A DNA stretch of 58,858 nt from positions 1 through 58,858 of the forward strand of contig CAJOGA010000013.1 of assembly GCA_905233855.1 (NCBI GenBank). The letters are read 5' to 3'. The position numbers were made by a program, and so were the translations under genes. This document shows, piece after piece, positions 4,146 through 48,326 of this stretch (its first letter is position 1; each line of letters starts with the position of its first letter). The notes beneath the pieces were generated by a model. The model did no database searches and had not been told where the DNA came from. It was given only the letters and a program-made list of their open reading frames with translations. This stretch comes from an uncultured Clostridia bacterium (GTDB lineage: Bacteria > Bacillota > Clostridia > UBA1381 > CAJOGA01).

Positions 4146-4505
4146 TTAAAACAAACCCGGAATATTCATTCCTCCGGTTACCTTTTCCATACCTTCCTGC
4201 ATCATTTCGTCAGCTTTACGCATAGCCTCGTTAACAGCTGCAAGCACAAGGTCTTCAAGCATTTCAACATCGTCTGCGTCAACAACGTCCGGATTTATTT
4301 TGATAGACAAAACCTCTTTTTTTCCGTTCACTTTAACATTTACCGCACCGCCGCCCGACGACGCTTCAACTTCGTTTTTCCCAAGCTCCTCCTGAACATT
4401 TTCCATTTCAGACTGCATCTTCTGAGCCTGACGCATTACCTGGTTAATATCCATCTTGCCGCCCATTGCTCCACCCTGAAATTTACCCGGTCTGTATTTT
4501 GGCAT
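4146..4505 (-). CDS. ybaB: YbaB/EbfC family nucleoid-associated protein
   Basis: 119 aa with [18 protein letters not shown]...[18 protein letters not shown], typical of the family. It sits in the conserved position between dnaX and recR. Confidence 0.9.
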
Positions 4506-6402: not shown

Positions 6403-6494
6403 GCAACTCACGCTCCTTTTAAAATTCTCATAATTCAAAACAAACGCCTGTTACGGCGTTTATCTGACTGTGTATTAATTTTAACAAACAAATA

Positions 6495-6628
6495 AACGGC
6501 TCCGATTGAGCACCCCTGCAACGCATCGGATAAACCGCTTATTGCTGCTCGGTTCCCCGCCTGACAAGGTTCACAGCCTCCGATCGTACAGGACTCAATC
6601 ATCATCGCCGAATTATTCACACACTTTA
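6495..6628 (-). ncRNA. ffs: signal recognition particle RNA (small, 4.5S-like)
   Basis: Minus strand contains CCUUGUCAGGCGGGGAACCGAGCAGC, the domain IV GUCAGG...GGAA...AGCAGC signature. The flanks GAUUGAGUCCUG and CAGGGGUGCUCAAUC pair with each other. TATAAT lies at 6636-6641 and the hairpin AAACGCCGUAACAGGCGUUU lies downstream. The position upstream of dnaX matches Bacillus scr. The ends are approximate. Confidence 0.75.
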
Positions 6629-12048: not shown

Positions 12049-12352
12049 AAAAAAAATCTTCGTCTCGCATGCATACAGCACAAGAGACGAAGATAACATA
12101 TCTCCGCGGTACCACTCTTATTGAAACCGTTATCTTATATAAAACACGGTTCCCGCTCATTTCATCTTTCAATGAATTTCCTTTTAACGGAGGAAAAGCC
12201 CGGTCGCACTTACTAAGCAAAAACACGCTTTTCGGCTGACTGCTCGAGGGGGAGCGTATATTACGCTTGCGGTCTGCCTTGCAGCAAACGGCAGCTCTCT
12301 GAGCCGCAACATCGTAACAACTTGCCCTGTCATTGCATTTAACTTTATATTC
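12049..12352 (-). promoter_or_regulatory. T-box leader with probable Tyr specifier (UAC)
   Basis: Minus strand carries an AGAGAG bulge, the F-box CCGUUA, the T-box AAUAAGAGUGGUACCGCGG (12104-12122) and the terminator CUUCGUCUC...GAGACGAAG plus U8 (12049-12092). The specifier segment GCGUAAUA-UAC-G aligns with GCGUAAUA-UGG-A in the second T-box of this window. Confidence 0.8.
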
Positions 12353-15358: not shown

Positions 15359-15386
15359 GCAGGCTGTATCGCAAGATACAGCCTGT
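15359..15386 (+). repeat. ppdK terminator-type hairpin, copy 1, without a U tract
   Basis: GCAGGCTGTATC-GCAA-GATACAGCCTGT. An identical 28-mer recurs at 15620-15647. Confidence 0.9.
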
Positions 15387-15387
15387 C

Positions 15388-15472
15388 AGACTGTCGAAAA
15401 AGTCGCCCGACCGCAGAAATATTATTATTTGCGGTCAGCGGCTTTTTGTATTTATTACGTAAAATCATATCT
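15388..15472 (+). repeat. ~85-nt conserved structured module, copy A
   Basis: ACTGTCGAAAAAGTCGCCCGACCGCAGAAATATTATTATTTGCGGTCAGCGGCTTTTTGTATTTATTACGTAAAATCATAT is near-identical to 38522-38607. It contains the hairpin GCCCGACCGCA...TGCGGTCAGCGGC followed by a T run. Confidence 0.85.
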
Positions 15473-15619
15473 ATAACTTCTTTTAAAAACAGTTCTGTTA
15501 ATTGCTTTTGCCGATTTTGAACTCTAACGTACACACGTACGCCGACGAATTCAAAATCGCCAAATCTGCCTTCCTTTTTCGAAGTCTCCCAGTGTGTCGA
15601 TAGGTTTATCGACACACTG

Positions 15620-17245: not shown

Positions 17246-17940
17246 ACAAAATTAAAAAGGTGTTCCCTATCCTGCTCTGTATCAGTGTTTTGACAGGCTG
17301 TCATACAAAAACCGTTAATATGAAAACTCATGATATAGTATATGATAAAGACTATATAAGCGTGAATGCAAAGATACCTGTGTTTTCAGGCTTAGACAAA
17401 GCCTTTGCCGAATTTCTTAACGACAACACAATGAAAAAATACGAAAAATACATAAGTGATTTTGACGCCGATGCATTATCGGTGCATGACGGAGGCAACG
17501 GGCCAAAATTTGAACTGAACATAGAGCCTGTTTTAACGTGCAACAAAAAATTTCTAAGTTACATCATGGTTACGGATTCCTTCAGCGGCGGCACTCATAA
17601 ACTGACCGCAAAAGCCGCCACTACCGTGGATTTATCGTCAAATTCACCGATTTTTATAAGCGATATGTTCACAGACGGCACAGACTATGCCTCCATCCTG
17701 ACTGAATACATGCAAAATCTTGCCAAAACCGATTTTAAAACTTATAACGATTTATGGGAAGCCCCCTCCTTTACCGCACAGCAAAACGAAGATTTTTACA
17801 TACAGGACGACAAAATAATAATATTCTATCCGCCGTACGATCTGGCACCGTATTCTGCCGGCTTTATAGAATTTCCAATACCACTGAGCGATATAAATGA
17901 ATACCTTAAACCGGAATACCAATCTCTTACATCAAAATAA
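17230..17940 (+). CDS. lipoprotein with DUF4163/DUF3298-like (RsiV/PdaC-type) domains
   Basis: Lipobox-like signal ILLCISVLTGC, the SGGTHKL motif and a FIEFPIPLSDI end typical of DUF3298. It overlaps the spoIVA stop by 16 nt. Confidence 0.6.
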   Translation: MHNIINKIKKVFPILLCISVLTGCHTKTVNMKTHDIVYDKDYISVNAKIPVFSGLDKAFAEFLNDNTMKKYEKYISDFDADALSVHDGGNGPKFELNIEPVLTCNKKFLSYIMVTDSFSGGTHKLTAKAATTVDLSSNSPIFISDMFTDGTDYASILTEYMQNLAKTDFKTYNDLWEAPSFTAQQNEDFYIQDDKIIIFYPPYDLAPYSAGFIEFPIPLSDINEYLKPEYQSLTSK

Positions 17941-17972
17941 ATAAAATATGAGGCGTACTCGCAGGGACAGTA

Positions 17973-18002
17973 AAAGGCTCTCGCAAATCAGCGAGAGCCT
18001 TT
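17973..18002. terminator. hairpin between convergent genes
   Basis: AAAGGCTCTCGC-AAATCA-GCGAGAGCCTTT. Confidence 0.65.
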
Positions 18003-18513
18003 AATCATTATGAAAACAATCTTTTTCCCATCTTATAACATTTGTATCAATATATTCCCATATTTTCCGATAATCTTTTTCGCCGCGAATGATATGGTCA
18101 TGACAAGAGGATTGCCAAATTGGCGTTTTGACGGAATGCATAAACTCATTCCTTGCAATCCTTGTTACTCCCGCCTTGAATTTACCTACAACATTTGGAA
18201 TATCGTATTTTTTGTAGGGAACGGATTTATCCGTTCCGCAATTTATCCCTTTTGCTTCTAAAATCACAATAATCATATGTATGTGATTAGGCATGATAAC
18301 ATATTTATCTATTCGAATATTTTCGTAACGAGGTTCAATATTCATGATTTCTTTATTAACAATTTTTCCTAAATCACTTAAGCACATTTTCTCATTGTTT
18401 ATTTCACCGAATAAATGTAATTTTCGATTTGTACAAATTGTAATAAAATATGCTCCCGGCGTCCCATAATCATATCCTTTTAATCTAGTTGGTTTTCGTT
18501 CTGGTAAATTCAT
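18001..18513 (-). CDS. REP-associated tyrosine transposase-like protein (RAYT / IS200-Y1 HUH family, COG1943-like)
   Basis: 170 aa with RLKGYDYGTPGAYFITICT, the HUH motif MPNHIHMII, and WQSSCHDHIIRGEKDYRKIWEYIDTNVIRW typical of this family. Confidence 0.8.
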   Translation of the reverse strand: MNLPERKPTRLKGYDYGTPGAYFITICTNRKLHLFGEINNEKMCLSDLGKIVNKEIMNIEPRYENIRIDKYVIMPNHIHMIIVILEAKGINCGTDKSVPYKKYDIPNVVGKFKAGVTRIARNEFMHSVKTPIWQSSCHDHIIRGEKDYRKIWEYIDTNVIRWEKDCFHND

Positions 18514-18521
18514 AATTACAC

Positions 18522-18761
18522 CTATTTAGTTTCTTGTTCTAAATTATCAAAATCCTCTGTAGAGAAAAACTCACCTAATGTTATTTATCTATCACAAAAT
18601 TTTTTGATTGTTCTTATGGAAACATCTCTGCGTAATTTATCCATCATACTATAAGCAGTTGAGGGTGTAACTCCTGAAACATTTGCAAGCTCATTTATTC
18701 GCATATTTCTTTCTGCACATAGTTCATTAAATCTTTTTACTATTACATCTTTAACATCCAT
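18522..18761 (-). pseudogene. XRE-family HTH regulator interrupted by an in-frame TAA
   Basis: MDVKDVIVKRFNELCAERNMRINELANVSGVTPSTAYSMMDKLRRDVSIRTIKKFCDR-TAA(18585-18587)-ITLGEFFSTEDFDNLEQETK. The post-stop peptide ITLGEFF is the usual last helix of HTH_3 domains. RBS is AAGGTG. Confidence 0.7.
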
Positions 18762-18829
18762 TTTAAAACACCTTATAAAGATATTCTAAAATAATTTACA
18801 TTTTTGCGTATTTAGCAAAATTATGATAT

Positions 18830-18997
18830 CCTACGACTATGCGGAATGGATAAATCCATTCCCTACGACTATGCGGAACGGATAAATCCGTTCCCTACAA
18901 CTATGCGGAACGGATAAATCCATTCCCTACAACTATGCGGAATGGATAAATCCATTCCCTACAACTATGCGGAACGGATAAATACGTTCCCTACAAT
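18830..18997 (-). repeat. tandem array of five 32-nt REP-like units (GTAG plus hairpin)
   Basis: The minus-strand unit is GTAGG-GAATGGA-TTTA-TCCATTCC-GCATAGT(T/C). Hairpins lie at 18843-62, 18875-94, 18907-26, 18939-58 and 18971-90. The stem variants T/A and C/G covary. Confidence 0.85.
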
Positions 18998-19078
18998 AAA
19001 GGCTGAACGATTTTATTTCATTCAGCCTTTTAAACTACTTTCCTTTAGAGTACACCTATTATGTTGCAGGGATTTTAA

Positions 19079-20731
19079 TTATTCCGGTTTAAAACTGCTC
19101 TTTAGCGGAGCTGTGCGGTTAAACACGCCGTCGTTTTTGCTGTCTTTAACAAAATATCCTGTACGGACAAATTGAAAACGTTCGTCCGGCGTTGCATCTT
19201 TAAGCGACGGCTCAACAAAGCAATCGGTGTATTCCACCAATGAATCATCGCTCAAAAATTCTTCAAATGTGTCCTCCTCCAAAAGGGTTGCCACATTTTC
19301 TTTATTAAACAAATTGTTATATATTCTTATCTTGCATTTTTCACAGTTCGACGCCGAAAGCCAGTGAATTGTACCTTTTACCTTTCTTCCGTCAACAGGC
19401 TTGTTGTTGCCAGTCTCAAGGTCTACCGTACACATAAGCTGTGTAACATTTCCGTTTTCATCATGCACAACTTCGTTGCATTTTAAGATGTATGCACTCA
19501 TCAAACGCACTTCTTTTCCGGGAGCAAGCCGTATAAAGCCCGGCACAGGTTCCTCCATAAAATCGGAACGGTCGATGTATATTTCTCTTGTGAACGCCAA
19601 CTCACGTTTGCCCCATTCCGGTTTTTTAGGATGGTTCGATGTTTCAAACATTTCGGTTTTGTCTTCCGGATAGTTTGTGATAACAACTTTAAGCGGCTCC
19701 AAAATTGCCACTCTACGCTGTGTTGTTTCGTTAAGCTCCTCGCAAACACAGTATTCCAAATATCTCACGTCCGCAACGCTGTAATTTTTGGAAACACCGT
19801 TTCTTGATATAAAATCCAATATAGCCGTCGGCGTGTAGCCTCTGCGGCGAAGTCCGCAAAGCGTCGGCATTCTTGGGTCGTCCCAACCGTCAACAATTTT
19901 GTTCTCAACAAGCTTACGCAGATACCTCTTGCTCATGACGGTGTATGTCATGTTTAAACGTGCAAATTCGTATTGATGCGGGCTGACCTCAAATCCTACA
20001 TTTTCAACCACCCAGTCGTAAAGCGGTCGATGATTTTCAAACTCTATACTGCACAGCGAATGTGTTATGCCTTCAAGACCGTCCTGTATCGGATGTGCAA
20101 AGTCGTACATAGGATATATGCACCATTTATTCCCGTGTCTGTGATGATTAACATGCAATATTCTGTATATAACAGGGTCTCTCATATTGATATTCGGCGA
20201 TGACATGTCTATCTTTGCACGCAATGTTCTTGAGCCGTCGGCAAATTCGCCGTCTTTCATTCTTTTGAACAAGTCTAAATTTTCTTCAACGCTTCTGTCT
20301 CTGTACGGACTGTTCTTGCCCGGCTGAGTAAGTGTGCCGCGGTATTCGCTCATCTGTTCCTGAGAAAGGTCGCACACATATGCCTTCCCTTCCCTTATAA
20401 GCTTTTGTGCAAACTCATAGCATTTATCAAAATAGTCAGAACCGTAGAATATTCCGCCGGTAGGCTCCATGCCGAGCCATCTTAAATCTTCTTCTATAGA
20501 CTTAACATATTCGTCATCTTCTTTAACCGGATTGGTATCGTCATAACGCAGGTTGAACTTACCGCCGTATTTTTTTGCAGTGCTTGCGTTTATCCATATT
20601 GCCTTTGCACTACCTATATGCAGATACCCGTTAGGTTCCGGAGGAAAACGCGTGTGTATTTCTTTAACTTTGCCCTCTGCCAGATCCTTATCTATCACAT
20701 CATGTATAAAATTAGAATTAGTCTCCCCCAT
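19079..20731 (-). CDS. glnS: glutamine--tRNA ligase
   Basis: HIGH region FPPEPNGYLHIGSAKAI, a class I core and a C-terminal anticodon-binding beta-barrel pattern typical of GlnRS. ATG 20731 is preceded by GGAG. Confidence 0.93.
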   Translation of the reverse strand: MGETNSNFIHDVIDKDLAEGKVKEIHTRFPPEPNGYLHIGSAKAIWINASTAKKYGGKFNLRYDDTNPVKEDDEYVKSIEEDLRWLGMEPTGGIFYGSDYFDKCYEFAQKLIREGKAYVCDLSQEQMSEYRGTLTQPGKNSPYRDRSVEENLDLFKRMKDGEFADGSRTLRAKIDMSSPNINMRDPVIYRILHVNHHRHGNKWCIYPMYDFAHPIQDGLEGITHSLCSIEFENHRPLYDWVVENVGFEVSPHQYEFARLNMTYTVMSKRYLRKLVENKIVDGWDDPRMPTLCGLRRRGYTPTAILDFISRNGVSKNYSVADVRYLEYCVCEELNETTQRRVAILEPLKVVITNYPEDKTEMFETSNHPKKPEWGKRELAFTREIYIDRSDFMEEPVPGFIRLAPGKEVRLMSAYILKCNEVVHDENGNVTQLMCTVDLETGNNKPVDGRKVKGTIHWLSASNCEKCKIRIYNNLFNKENVATLLEEDTFEEFLSDDSLVEYTDCFVEPSLKDATPDERFQFVRTGYFVKDSKNDGVFNRTAPLKSSFKPE

Positions 20732-38477: not shown

Positions 38478-38521
38478 TTTAATACAATTCATGAGCCGAT
38501 CTTAATTCAGACCGGTCCTTC

Positions 38522-38607
38522 ATACTGTCGAAACAGTCGCCCGACCGCAGAAATATTATTATTTGCGGTCAGCGGCTTTTTTGCGTTTGTTACGCAAAAC
38601 CATATTT
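38522..38607 (+). repeat. ~85-nt conserved structured module, copy B
   Basis: ACTGTCGAAACAGTCGCCCGACCGCAGAAATATTATTATTTGCGGTCAGCGGCTTTTTTGCGTTTGTTACGCAAAACCATAT. It is followed by unrelated perfect hairpins, including GTACCATCTGTCG-GAAGA-CGACAGATGGTAC at 38670-38700. Confidence 0.85.
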
Positions 38608-38991
38608 AATGCCTACCGAACAAATGCTTTTTCGAAAGCATTTCAATGAAATTGATTGACCACCTGTTTGTACCATCTGTCGGAAGACGACAGATGGTAC
38701 AAAGTGCAAGGCTTTATTTATAATCTCTCGAGCGAAAACGATGCTCCACATTTTCTGCCAAATCCGGAGGTCCTGCATAAAAACTTAAACCATGAACAGT
38801 AACCCACGCAACATGTTTGCTTTATGTGCTTTTTCGATTATATTTTTCAAAAAAACTTTTTGAATTTTATTTTTTTATGTTGATTTTTTTATTGAAATAT
38901 GTTAAAGTTTTGATGGTTATTGTATAAATATGGTCTCTTTTAGATTTTCGGTTTATACCCTTTAATTCAACAGTTGAGGAGCGATTTAACA

Positions 38992-43984: not shown

Positions 43985-44095
43985 TTAATTTTGATAATTC
44001 ATTAAAATTTATGCAAATATAAACGCTTTAATTCATATAGATATGTCATAGAGTCAAAAATGCTCTCTGTGGCAAGTTAAAATGATTTCAAGAAG

Positions 44096-45241
44096 GTGTT
44101 TTTATTGCAAAAAAACCATGCTTACAAGATTAAAATTTATAAAATGTTTATCTCTGTTCTGCTTTTATCTATGATCACATTTTTTGTGTTAAAACCCGGT
44201 GTTGTTATTTCATCGGCAAAAAACGCTCTGATACTTTGTTTTAATACCGTTATACCCTCTCTCTTCCCCTTTTTTGTATGCTCGGGATTATTGATAAAGC
44301 TTGGATTTGCTCAGGTTTTAAGCAAACGTATAGGCTTTATAATGAAACCGTTGTTTAATGTTAACGGTAGCGGAAGCAGTGCTTTTTTACTTGGCATAAT
44401 AAGCGGTTACCCCACAGGGGCAATAACCGCAGTACAGCTTTACGAAAACAAGCTTTGCAATAAAACCGAAGCGGAGCGGCTTCTGGCTTTTTGCAACAAT
44501 TCAGGGCCGATATTTATTTTGGGAGCCTTAACCTGTATGTACAACTCTCAGACAGCAGGCGTGGTTTTATATATTTCACATATCCTTGCCGCTCTTACTG
44601 TTGGTATTATTTTCAGATTTTACAAAAAAACGTCTGTGGTACGCGATACGCACACCGACATGTCAAGTATCGCAACACCGTTTGCAACCGTATTTGCCAA
44701 TGTGATGAAAGAATCGTTAAACACAATATTGCTTATCTGTGCATCGGTAGTGTTTTTTAAAGTGGTTATTGACACGGCGGTGTATGTTTTCAATCTGCAA
44801 GGATATGTTTTAGCCTCTGTTGCCGGATTTACAGAGTTCACGTCAGGCATAAACGTCATAGCCGGTATGAATGTTTCTTTGTCTGAAAAGATAGTTCTAT
44901 CTTCCGTTGTGTTGGGGTTTGCCGGAATCAGCGTTCATTTTCAGGTGTTGAACATACTGTCTAAAACGGATTTGAGTGCAAAACCGTATTTTGCCGGAAA
45001 GCTTCTGCATTCGGTATTCAGTTCGCTATACGTCTTGATAATGCTGCGTTTTATCCCTGTGGGCACGCCTGTATTTATGAATATTTTTCCTATGAGGACA
45101 GAGAGCTGTTTTGTTTGCACATCGGTATTTGTTTTTGGAATGGGATATATTTTGAGCGGAATTTTGTTTGCGTTTATGCTGACGGTTATTTCTTATATAT
45201 CTTGCCGTCTTAAAGGCAAACGCAAGCATTGTGAAAAATGA
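44096..45241 (+). CDS. ylbJ: sporulation integral membrane protein YlbJ-like
   Basis: Polytopic membrane protein with ALILCFNTVIPSLFPFFVCSGLL and nucleoside-recognition-like halves. The start is uncertain (GTG 44096 or ATG 44144). Confidence 0.7.
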   Translation: MFLLQKNHAYKIKIYKMFISVLLLSMITFFVLKPGVVISSAKNALILCFNTVIPSLFPFFVCSGLLIKLGFAQVLSKRIGFIMKPLFNVNGSGSSAFLLGIISGYPTGAITAVQLYENKLCNKTEAERLLAFCNNSGPIFILGALTCMYNSQTAGVVLYISHILAALTVGIIFRFYKKTSVVRDTHTDMSSIATPFATVFANVMKESLNTILLICASVVFFKVVIDTAVYVFNLQGYVLASVAGFTEFTSGINVIAGMNVSLSEKIVLSSVVLGFAGISVHFQVLNILSKTDLSAKPYFAGKLLHSVFSSLYVLIMLRFIPVGTPVFMNIFPMRTESCFVCTSVFVFGMGYILSGILFAFMLTVISYISCRLKGKRKHCEK

Positions 45242-45313
45242 GCCTGTTTGTTTTAACAAAAAATACACAGCTTCATATACTGAAAATAACAATATAAGAG
45301 GATGTGTATAATT

Positions 45314-45655
45314 ATGGCTTTATTTTTGGAATATATAGTGATTTTATTTGGACTTGCGGGAATTGTGTACATAATTACAGAAGCGTTTATGCACTTATAC
45401 AAGACAAATTGCGTAAATGAATATATTATTCTTTTCACTTTAAACAACGAAATAAATATCGAATACACAATACTTTCCATAATAAACCGCTGCAGAAAAA
45501 AGTGCTCGGGTATACATATAATCGTTATTGACAAAGGCTCGAACGATGAGACGCTGAAAATATTGAACAATTTATCCGAAAACTATGAATTTATACATAT
45601 ACTTCATTCCGACAATTATGCTCAGCAATTATTGGAATTGATAAATGCTGATTAA
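45314..45655 (+). CDS. small membrane-anchored protein with a truncated GT2-like (glycosyltransferase family 2 N-terminal) segment
   Basis: One TM helix, then IHIIVIDKGSNDETLKILNNL, which resembles the GT-A nucleotide-binding start. It is only 113 aa. RBS is AGAGGA. Confidence 0.5.
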   Translation: MALFLEYIVILFGLAGIVYIITEAFMHLYKTNCVNEYIILFTLNNEINIEYTILSIINRCRKKCSGIHIIVIDKGSNDETLKILNNLSENYEFIHILHSDNYAQQLLELINAD

Positions 45656-45738
45656 ATCCTTGCAAATCGGTCATAACTTTTTATAACGTCAATATACTAA
45701 CAGTGTACACTGTATTGCAAGGAGACAAAAATCAGATC

Positions 45739-48249: not shown

Positions 48250-48326
<77 letters not shown>

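Follow-up and report, generated by a model that had tools for sequence, protein, structure and literature searches.

We read the locus described here as a REPtron, that is, a single-copy RAYT (TnpA_REP) accompanied by copies of its cognate REP, with the RAYT closest to subclass 2.4 (Bertels Group 4), and we assign a probability of about 0.8 to this reading as a whole. The locus lies within the clostridial DNA analysed (58,858 nucleotides, hereafter the window). The 170-aa protein is a divergent RAYT, and its operon is preceded by five head-to-tail copies of a short repeat carrying the GTAG tetranucleotide at the foot of a hairpin. The features of the locus are as follows:

17946–18811, minus strand: HTH–RAYT cassette, extent in common with one other species (82% nucleotide identity to locus L004 by blastn)
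17973–18002, unstranded: G+C-rich terminator-like hairpin over the RAYT stop codon, facing a convergent DUF3298/PdaC gene
18001–18513, minus strand: RAYT/TnpA_REP-like Y1 HUH enzyme, 170 aa (ORF, profile, structure and alignment evidence)
18133–18156, minus strand: REP-B, degenerate second REP within the ORF (sense strand), GCAAGGAATGAGTTTATGCATTCC; homologs have GTAGGGAATGCATTTATGCATTCC (VGNAFMHS)
18214–18240, plus strand: REP-A, in-frame copy inside the RAYT ORF, inverted with respect to the array, GTAGGGAACGGATTTATCCGTTCCGCA; encodes CGTDKSVPY
18522–18584, minus strand: remnant of the HTH C-terminus, in frame after the premature stop, ITLGEFFSTEDFDNLEQETK
18585–18761, minus strand: Cro/C1-type HTH gene (Pfam HTH_26), 58 aa, ending at an in-frame TAA; homologs have 80 aa
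18783–18810, minus strand: putative operon promoter, sigma-70 type (-35 TACGCA, 16-nt spacer, -10 TAGAAT)
18830–18994, minus strand: head-to-tail REP array, five 32-nt units plus a terminal GTAGG (TRF, pattern search, ssDNA folds)
18994–18963, minus strand: unit U1, GTAGGGAACGTATTTATCCGTTCCGCATAGTT, stem with one mismatch
18962–18931, minus strand: unit U2, GTAGGGAATGGATTTATCCATTCCGCATAGTT
18930–18899, minus strand: unit U3, GTAGGGAATGGATTTATCCGTTCCGCATAGTT, mixed unit
18898–18867, minus strand: unit U4, GTAGGGAACGGATTTATCCGTTCCGCATAGTC
18866–18835, minus strand: unit U5, GTAGGGAATGGATTTATCCATTCCGCATAGTC
18834–18830, minus strand: terminal GTAGG closing the array
18998–19030, minus strand: terminator-like hairpin belonging to the glutaminyl-tRNA synthetase gene upstream, with the array beginning right after the T-run of this hairpin

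Each array unit consists of a 24-nt REP (GTAGGGAAYGGATTTATCCRTTCC, GTAGG followed by an 8-bp hairpin) and an 8-nt linker (GCATAGTY). The REP is short, with an 8-bp stem, a TTTA loop and a GG/CC base followed by A-T pairs. TRF identified a single array in this region (18830–18996; period 32, 5.2 copies, 94% matches, score 285), the units folded as predicted when treated as ssDNA (-5 to -8.3 kcal/mol), and the fold of the whole array departed strongly from that of shuffled sequences (z = -7.9). The preliminary description had reported five GTAG-hairpin units 5' of the operon and on the same strand, and this is borne out by TRF, unit dissection and the ssDNA folds; the mixed unit said to pair on one strand only is U3, in which T.G pairs form on the minus strand. 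The two ORFs, encoding the 170-aa protein with the NHIHMII segment and the HTH protein, are likewise as described, both on the minus strand. A search for the 20-nt hairpin pattern (up to three mismatches, both strands, whole window) returned 13 matches, all inside 18133–18990, against 0.02 in shuffled sequences. No REP copy was found beyond 18133–18994 in the 58.8 kb of the window, an absence that rules out only high copy numbers (about 130 or more per assumed 2.5-Mb genome). No REPs were found 3' of the RAYT gene in the window, the copies being the five located 5' of the operon together with one perfect and one degenerate copy within the ORF. The GTAG strand of all five units is the minus strand. 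Both GC skew and gene orientation switch near 44–45 kb of the window, and these local signals hint that the minus strand may be the lagging-strand template; no dnaA was found near the switch, where the neighbouring genes encode YqfD, PhoH, a transporter and a polysaccharide-synthesis protein.

The 24-mer is a dispersed, mostly extragenic REP family of Oscillospirales. Exact copies were found in at least 120 stretches in genome contigs, mostly from Oscillospirales MAGs, and several of the genomes among the matches listed contained many copies on many contigs; the loci among these matches all came from species other than that of the window. Among the matches listed, 14% of the REPs were located in ORFs of at least 200 aa, versus 79% of random positions, and 2 of 146 were inside RAYT-like ORFs. 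The REP pairs among the matches listed were inverted with GTAG outside (184), direct (75) or inverted with GTAG inside (56). The 24-mer is identical or nearly so across many genera, at loci with a G+C content ranging from 22 to 62%. The array-specific combination of unit and linker had no match in a scan of viral contigs. The array units are therefore true REPs, since the 24-mer is dispersed, mostly extragenic and often found in inverted pairs. The stem variants that had been interpreted as compensatory are present and correspond to two REP alleles, both common elsewhere, but the selection on structure that they were taken to imply is weak within the array, because the stem is broken in many units of other strains.

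Array length, which the preliminary description had proposed comparing between strains, was found to differ among four strains with flanks 99.2–99.5% identical, at 4, 5 (the window), 8 and at least 8 units. The units nearest the promoter are perfect and do not differ between strains, and the distal units in strains L001–L003 have accumulated spreading mutations breaking the stem and the GTAG (e.g. GTACGG...TTTACCCAATCC). No array was found at the homologous operons of the closest other species (L004, L008, L236 and L238), in which the HTH is intact, with 80 aa; at a further locus, L082, direct REP arrays lie on both sides of a RAYT without an HTH. Among the homologous loci compared, the tandem array beside the operon is restricted to the window species. 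The one-sided direct tandem arrangement had been considered atypical, and it is indeed unusual; it nevertheless has a precedent, because head-to-tail REP clusters are already known (PMC3733652). In the window species, one REP with its 8-nt linker would have multiplied into a head-to-tail series just in front of the operon promoter. The array probably expands, contracts and reshuffles in the manner of a minisatellite, through slipped-strand or unequal recombination, with RAYT nicking possibly promoting these changes in length.

The alternative that survives best is a relic minisatellite, in which the array is derived from REPs and is now inert, changing by slippage or unequal recombination only, and the RAYT mobilises nothing in this genome. 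It overlaps with the REPtron reading as regards origin and differs from it as regards present activity. The lack of dispersed copies in 58.8 kb, the decay of the distal units in L001–L003 and the absence of the array from the closest other species are consistent with such a relic, as is the damage to the rest of the locus: with REP-B degenerate, the HTH truncated and the putative operator half deleted, the system may be decaying in the window species. However, four strains retain an intact RAYT ORF with all the residues that are invariant in the family, REP-A is perfect, canonical and seemingly overwritten recently, and the promoter-proximal units have remained perfect and identical across strains. 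We regard an inert array as possible, with the odds somewhat against it.

The REPtron reading is also consistent with the REPs found within the RAYT gene. REP-A, REP-B and the in-frame TAA of the HTH gene were absent from the preliminary description. An antisense GTAGG hairpin was found just past the HUH strand in 64 of 73 distinct genes of the family, and the window copy occupies the same position. There were 46 perfect in-ORF hairpins, versus a mean of 0.2–1.4 after synonymous resampling. Six of the eight stem pairs are changed on both sides, in elements pre-selected for pairing; the figure of 98% paired is circular for this same reason, and the informative observations are the recurrence in 64 of 73 genes and the synonymous-codon controls. 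G+C-rich relatives have REPs with a GGG/CCC stem base. Where REPs lie outside but close to a RAYT gene (L043, L154, L172, L188 and L225), they match the one within the ORF of that gene. Most family members have two identical inverted in-frame REPs (REP-N and REP-A) bracketing the HUH-coding segment, in the layout of the commonest extragenic REP dimers. Quentin, Siguier, Chandler and Fichant (2018, PMC6006769) have already described in-ORF REPs for TnpA_REP subclass 2.4.

The REP-A site of the window differs from that of homologs by a 16-nt gain and a 1-nt loss, and residues 89–99, encoded around REP-A, form a low-confidence loop in the AF2 model. An inverted REP is thus placed in frame within a surface loop of the RAYT, as in most members of the family, and in the window species it looks to have been overwritten by a canonical REP like those that are dispersed, which suggests that sequence is exchanged between the REPs and the gene. 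The GCA following the in-ORF REP was considered as a mark of conversion from the array, and this idea was dropped: GCA follows the REP in 23 loci of other genomes, so the donor of REP-A could be any canonical REP. A more ambitious proposal holds that the enzyme has functional targets in the in-ORF REPs, which would serve as a master copy that seeds, and is re-seeded by, the genomic REPs, or as a switch for self-cleavage or auto-regulation, that loss of the HTH and its operator unleashed the local amplification, and that the REP–RAYT pair spreads horizontally; we consider this combination doubtful.

The small gene upstream from the RAYT matches Pfam HTH_26 (E 1.9e-6, profile positions 2–48 of 63), and the same 58-aa protein was called in three other strains. 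In tblastn searches, all 80 residues of the L004 HTH aligned across the stop in strains L001–L003. The putative -35 lies 19 nt downstream from the end of the array. A generic promoter scan made no call at the proposed operon promoter, for which conservation argues: the stretch is conserved in L004, L008 and L236 and varies only at the third base of the -10. A palindrome, TACGCAAGYGCGTA, is conserved at the promoter of homologs and half deleted in the window species. The HTH protein is probably an autorepressor acting on this putative operator, in which case both partners of the regulatory circuit would be damaged in the window species. It could be argued that the repeats are themselves operators or iterons for the HTH, their hairpin symmetry reflecting dimer binding to double-stranded DNA, given the position of the array immediately 5' of the operon promoter and the palindrome present in every unit. 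However, L004, L008, L236 and L238 combine an intact 80-aa HTH with no array, L082 has arrays and no HTH, the 24-mer is intergenic in genomes with no HTH homolog seen in the loci examined, and the palindrome conserved at homolog promoters is a different one, making such a role for the repeats very improbable.

Profile searches, as suggested in the preliminary description, placed the 170-aa protein with the RAYTs. It matched the NCBIfam model REP_Tyr_transpos (NF047646; E 4.8e-16, profile positions 10–133 of 146) far better than the IS200 model (NF033573; E 0.097), although its scores were below the curated cut-offs (59 bits versus 80 for REP_Tyr_transpos and 22 versus 23 for Pfam Y1_Tnp). All 20 aligned relatives matched REP_Tyr_transpos, with a best E of 2.8e-21. 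The E. coli TnpA_REP structure 4ER8 was the sole PDB sequence match, with the aligned motifs PNHIH/PEHMH, IWQssfhDHiiR/IWQprfwEHaiR and EYIdtN/DYIyiN (4ER8 given second). The AF2 model had a pLDDT of 78.5, and the top 30 Foldseek matches were all Y1 transposases, 4ER8 having the best TM-score (0.59, rmsd 4.9, 21% identity). With its own REPs alongside and the same REP dispersed in other genomes, the identification as a RAYT-like Y1 enzyme stands.

The key residues of the protein are H77/H79 of the HUH motif, W133-Q134, D139-H140, R143 and Tyr154. The P75-N-H77-I-H79 motif is invariant in the 20 relatives and lies on strand 77–84 of the AF2 model. The segment WQSSCHDHIIR has the same spacing as W94-Q95...E100-H101..R104 of E. 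coli TnpA_REP, in which W94, Q95, E100 (or D), H101 and R104 read GTAG (PMC6006769); the change from E to D at position E100 is present in other REP-associated subclasses (PMC6006769). Among the 20 relatives, no variation is seen at Q134, D139 or R143, and conservation is at least 90% at W133 and H140. Y154 aligns with the region of the catalytic Y115 of 4ER8 (EYIDTNV versus DYIYINP), and N158 is conserved; position 159 is V in the window and its nearest relatives and P (giving NP) in other relatives, so that the Y motif of the window is YIDTNV, versus Y---NP for class 2. From homology with E. coli TnpA_REP, we would expect an HUH/Tyr nuclease-ligase of single-stranded DNA that binds the 8-bp REP hairpin when the DNA is single-stranded, reads the 5' GTAG through W133, Q134, D139, H140 and R143, and cuts and rejoins nearby through H77/H79 and Y154.

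An ordinary insertion sequence of the IS200/IS605 type, with its end hairpins repeated by chance, would share the fold of the IS608 and ISDra2 TnpA proteins. It would also be consistent with the behaviour of the cassette, which is found in differing neighbourhoods across species (that of L004 is in an unrelated gene neighbourhood) and has a G+C content dipping to 28–32%, versus 40–45% in its flanks. However, apart from the poor match to the IS200 model, the Y motif is of class 2 (Y...N) rather than Y...Q (PMC6006769). Furthermore, the RAYT is present in one copy in the window, at an unchanged position in four strains, and in one copy per contig among relatives, and the cassette has no bracketing left-end and right-end hairpins. 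Its 3' end has only the terminator-like hairpin at 17973–18002, conserved with L004 despite the different neighbouring genes. We therefore give this interpretation very little credence. The least probable of the alternatives is a transcribed structured RNA (an sRNA, a leader or a CRISPR-like array), as might be imagined from a regular array of stable hairpins and a sub-threshold match to Rfam RUF4 (30.8 bits versus a gathering score of 55, taken as chance), but the array has a terminator on one side and the -35 of the promoter downstream on the other, the Rfam searches gave no family at threshold (E-value scan of 17800–19200 and gathering-threshold scan of the whole window), and elsewhere the unit occurs as a dispersed DNA repeat in both orientations. 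A CRISPR array was ruled out because the 32-nt period corresponds to the entire repeated unit and there are therefore no unique spacers.

The REPtron identified here most resembles TnpA_REP subclass 2.4 (Quentin et al. 2018, PMC6006769), which corresponds to RAYT Group 4 (Bertels et al. 2017, PMC5581495), a likeness resting on motifs and REP layout set against the published descriptions. The shared features are the HuH motif NH[IFV]H (here NHIH) with the WQ motif, a class-2 Y motif (YIDTNP or, in L082, YIDNNP in relatives), a variable insertion that separates the HuH strand from the following helix and results from in-frame REPs between HuH and Y, a small additional insertion earlier in the protein (REP-N in distant relatives), a low copy number with a patchy distribution suggestive of HGT, and GTAG REPs near the gene. 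The YIDTNV of the window is similar, but not identical, to the YIxNNP of subclass 2.4. The differences are that the REPs are short here (8–9-bp stem, 23–26 nt) rather than "long" or "double-foot" with three G-C pairs forming the base of the stem, the protein has 165–170 aa versus a median of 194, and the hosts are Clostridia (Oscillospirales) rather than Cyanobacteria or Bacteroidetes. In addition, the window sub-clade has a separate upstream HTH_26 gene, and the window species has a homogeneous one-sided head-to-tail array.

The E. coli REPtron (TnpA_REP/RAYT, YafM, 4ER8) has in common with the window locus the HUH/Y1 fold, the aligned catalytic Tyr and the GTAG-reading residues, and its REPs and BIMEs likewise have a 5' GTAG at the hairpin foot, adjoin a gene that is apparently single-copy in both cases, and belong to a family dispersed extragenically (for the window REP, in related genomes). 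However, the two proteins are only about 21% identical, the E. coli REPs are longer, bulged and arranged as inverted pairs on both sides of the gene, which those of the window are not, and the E. coli RAYT has neither an in-ORF REP nor an HTH partner, whereas the window locus has both. The array also resembles the head-to-tail (HT) REP dimers and tandem clusters reported by Di Nocera et al. (2013, PMC3733652), in which GTAG palindromes are tandemly reiterated with flanking DNA, amplification is tied to clustering and REPs occasionally lie in frame in ORFs. Their examples come from Proteobacteria and a few other phyla, with Firmicutes unmentioned, and the window array differs from them in being strictly periodic (32 nt), abutting the RAYT promoter and being polymorphic between strains. 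The TnpA proteins of IS200/IS605 elements (IS608, ISDra2) are similar in fold, chemistry, ssDNA hairpin recognition and preference for the lagging-strand template, but their Y motif is Y---Q rather than the Y...N found here, and these elements exist in multiple copies bounded by defined left-end and right-end hairpins and often carry tnpB, none of which was seen at the window locus.

REP–RAYT systems have been studied almost entirely in Proteobacteria, where they are seen as vertically inherited, genus-specific partners. The RAYT/REP literature that we searched did not mention Firmicutes and referred to Clostridia only for the Group 1 RAYTs of Bertels and the IS200-type subclass 1.1, and our limited literature search yielded no description of a REP family in these taxa. 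Many related Clostridia of the gut and rumen carry scattered copies of the 24-nt repeat found in the window, and the locus therefore extends a known system rather than representing a new kind of element. If true, a horizontally spreading REP–RAYT pair would contrast with the strictly vertical symbiont described for Proteobacteria. The locus constitutes a natural experiment, in that array length and unit decay are the only differences between the strains, the gene holds its own target, and both regulator and operator are damaged. Should the enzyme act on the units, the system would provide a simple model for REP multiplication; if it does not, the array would be an ordinary repeat-derived minisatellite beside a domesticated transposase. 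The enzyme belongs to a large family, with more than 3,300 protein clusters from gut and rumen Clostridia, and one of the loci compared, L172, encodes two distinct RAYTs that each have a REP type of their own.

The tandem array of GTAG hairpins reported 5' of the HTH-RAYT operon is real. TRF delimited a repeat at 18830-18996 with a period of 32 nt, 5.2 copies and 94% matches, and five full units were read on the minus strand. The features of the locus are as follows:

18830-18994, minus strand: REP array of five full units, each GTAGG, 8-bp stem, TTTA loop, return stem and linker GCATAGTY, with a terminal GTAGG at the end
18214-18240, plus strand: sixth REP copy (GTAGGGAACGGATTTATCCGTTCCGCA), inverted and in frame in the RAYT gene, overlooked in the preliminary description
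18522-18587, minus strand: in-frame stop codon of the HTH gene and the remnant beyond it, which matches 80-aa homologs
about 18811-18829, minus strand: region compared with the promoter palindrome TACGCAAGYGCGTA of L004 (2690-2716), L008 (2683-2706) and L236, homologous HTH-RAYT loci without the array

As to the proposed compensatory stem variants, the variable pair is T-A in two units, C-G in one and mixed in one, the mixed unit pairing as T.G on the minus strand only, and one unit has a mismatch. Within the 58.8-kb window, the 20-nt hairpin pattern is confined to 18133-18990 (chance expectation 0.02 matches). Folded as ssDNA, single units gave -5 to -8.3 kcal/mol and the whole array a z of -7.9. 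At its start the array directly follows a terminator-like hairpin belonging to the glutaminyl-tRNA synthetase gene; at its other end, 19 nt separate it from a downstream, conserved stretch that resembles a promoter (TACGCA, 16 nt, TAGAAT) and precedes the 58-aa HTH_26 ORF and then the 170-aa ORF. Array length, for which a comparison between strains had been suggested, is polymorphic, with 5, 8, 4 and at least 8 units in four strains whose flanks are 99.2-99.5% identical. The promoter-proximal unit is constant across these strains, and the distal units gather and propagate mutations breaking the GTAG and the stem. Six other loci from the sub-clade to which the window locus belongs lack the array; they have the two in-ORF REPs and, in most cases, the HTH.

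The assignment of the 170-aa protein to RAYT-like HUH proteins was upheld. It matched NCBIfam REP_Tyr_transpos with an E value of 4.8e-16 (59 bits, where the cut-off is 80) and the IS200 model with only 0.097, and all 20 aligned relatives matched the former. The single match of the family profile among PDB sequences was E. coli TnpA_REP (4ER8), which aligned at PNHIH/PEHMH, IWQ..DH..R/IWQ..EH..R and EYIDTN/DYIYIN; these stretches hold the HUH motif, the residues that read GTAG (W94/Q95/E100/H101/R104) and the catalytic tyrosine, as described in PMC6006769. As these residues show little or no variation across the family, the segment WQSSCHDH, which had raised doubts about catalytic competence, is the expected motif. 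The top 30 PDB structure matches of the AlphaFold model (pLDDT 78.5) were all Y1 transposases, 4ER8 having both the best TM-score and the best identity. The family comprises 3,382 clusters at E below 0.001, and those with an organism named in the source are labelled Clostridia, Ruminococcaceae or Oscillospiraceae.

REPs also lie inside the RAYT genes, a phenomenon already published by Quentin et al. (PMC6006769). The window copy encodes CGTDKSVPY where relatives have (E/R)(G/R)INPFPT, and the residues that it encodes (89-99) form a low-confidence loop in the AlphaFold model. L004, from a different species, has an antisense copy, GTAGGGAAGGGATTTATCCCTTCC (EGINPFPT), and a sense copy, GTAGGGAATGCATTTATGCATTCC (VGNAFMHS). 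An antisense GTAGG hairpin was present at this position in 64 of 73 distinct genes (46 of them perfect), against a mean of 0.2 to 1.4 in the synonymous-codon resampling control, and six of eight in-ORF stem pairs were changed on both sides. In the RAYT loci L012 and L082, both stem arms had changed, which replaced E by A and F by C in the protein. In most of the distant relatives an identical sense copy precedes the antisense one by about 150-170 nt, so that the HUH-coding segment is bracketed by two in-ORF REPs:

Two identical inverted in-frame GTAGG-hairpin REPs: L160, L161, L165, L166, L184, L190, L199, L201, L205, L213, L219, L221, L225
Example, L184: 4109-4131, plus strand; 4280-4302, minus strand

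Encoding VGxG..AP, the upstream sense copy may represent the '8-aa insertion at the end of alpha-B' listed by Quentin et al. for subclass 2.4. External REPs close to RAYT genes were of the same type as the in-ORF REP. At L226 (a RAYT ORF) and L228, a 26-aa segment encoded by a REP pair is duplicated in tandem and in frame inside the RAYT ORF (VGDDGNRPAEPRSDCHPPLRESIPN, twice), which parallels the growth of a REP array within a gene.

The units are REPs at the family level. The exact 24-mer GTAGGGAAYGGATTTATCCRTTCC matched at least 120 stretches of genome contigs; nearly all matches listed were in Oscillospirales MAGs (e.g. Faecousia, Acutalibacteraceae, Oscillospiraceae), and several genomes among them contributed many contigs (e.g. 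SUG2060, S36M_St_45). RAYT-like ORFs contained only 2 of the 146 matches listed, and stop-to-stop ORFs of at least 200 aa held 14% of them, versus 79% of random positions. Many lay 4-25 nt from a second type of hairpin in the opposite orientation, in a REPIN-like arrangement; over all fetched loci, 184 pairs were inverted with GTAG outside, 75 were direct neighbours and 56 pairs had GTAG inside. The proposed dispersed family therefore holds for related Oscillospirales genomes, but no copy was found outside the array-RAYT locus in the 58.8-kb window, and the window species was not among the genome-contig matches listed.

Several side observations concern these dispersed copies. A looser REP pattern also retrieved copies from IMG/VR contigs classed as viral, where REPs and G+C-rich GTAGGG-hairpin relatives lie between genes, some in clusters of three or four. 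In the 'Bacillota bacterium SUG2060' MAG, a composite repeat some 120-200 nt in length contains the 24-nt REP as its core, between conserved flanks (aaattggaatttg...gatgtttc REP gaaacgtc.gttacca...ggatgg), and is often found in inverted pairs.

REPs on IMG/VR contigs: L019, 841-910; L026, 1086-1368; L031, 5980-6180
SUG2060 composite repeats: L051, L052, L064, L069, L084, L095, L102, L110

Single exact 24-mers in MAGs of unrelated phyla (L039, labelled Thermoguttaceae; L094, labelled Oxalobacter) could be due to bin contamination or horizontal transfer. The L004 genome, source of the closest array-less homolog, has an extragenic G+C-rich REP at 1641-1664 (GTAGGGGCGATTCACGAATCGCCC) with the same sequence as the REP inside the RAYT ORF of L158, which belongs to another RAYT subfamily; this points to several REP-RAYT pairs in a single genome. 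Two RAYTs with distinct REPs occur in L172.

The HTH-RAYT cassette (17946-18811) has a G+C content below that of its flanks and is 82% identical to L004, whose gene neighbourhood differs. Aligned with L004 and L008, the window in-ORF REP has gained 16 nt and lost 1 nt; these changes keep the frame and yield a perfect canonical REP beside what is left of the former one, its loop and 3' arm. The in-ORF REP was probably overwritten by, or recombined with, another REP copy. The second in-ORF REP of the window species is degenerate. Its HTH gene has an in-frame TAA at codon 59, after which the C-terminus of the homologs can still be recognised in 20 codons, and the truncation is identical in three other strains. 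The homologs have the palindrome and a third TACGCA half-site at -35; the window lacks 14 nt of this palindrome, a likely HTH operator, exactly at the array junction.

A REPtron, i.e. a RAYT gene with copies of its cognate REP, is the best-supported account of the locus. The RAYT would recognise the GTAG-footed hairpin in ssDNA, nicking and joining it via the HUH motif and tyrosine; one REP with its linker would have multiplied in tandem next to the gene to form the array, which would now behave as a minisatellite. That the array is instead an inert REP-derived tandem repeat, the RAYT no longer mobilising anything in this genome, is a real but less probable alternative. As regards the REPtron, local GC skew and gene orientation would place the GTAG strand of all units on the lagging-strand template. 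This assignment is weak, since no replication origin was identified around the skew switch: at about 44000-45700 the skew changes sign and the main gene strand goes from minus to plus, and dnaA is absent from the genes there, which encode YqfD, PhoH, a nucleoside-recognition transporter and a polysaccharide-synthesis protein.

The closest known family appears to be TnpA_REP subclass 2.4 (Bertels Group 4), with which the locus shares HuH and WQ motifs, in-frame REPs and a patchy distribution. The one-sided direct array had been considered atypical; however, head-to-tail REP clusters, like in-ORF REPs, have already been described (PMC3733652, PMC6006769). The short REPs, Clostridial hosts, separate HTH gene and strictly periodic polymorphic array do differ from subclass 2.4. 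In the RAYT/REP literature examined, the word Firmicutes is absent and Clostridia appear only for Bertels' Group 1 RAYTs and the IS200-type subclass 1.1; a literature search of limited coverage found no publication on REPs in these Clostridial taxa. L082 (280-1054, minus strand) independently shows direct arrays on either side of a RAYT: the gene, without HTH, has four units with a 47-nt period upstream and two units downstream, all in sense orientation, and its in-ORF REP has compensated stem changes.

Elsewhere in the window, four Rfam matches scored above the gathering score, and two copies (89% identical) of an intergenic sequence of about 93 nt, centred on a long palindrome with imperfections (GTCGCCCGACCGCAGAAATATTATTATTTGCGGTCAGCGGC) and with a T-run after it, look like a repeated bidirectional terminator:

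586-663: c-di-GMP-I riboswitch
6482-6628: large SRP RNA
12080-12342: T-box leader
48250-48323: tRNA
15382-15473 and 38517-38608, plus strand: repeated palindromic intergenic sequence
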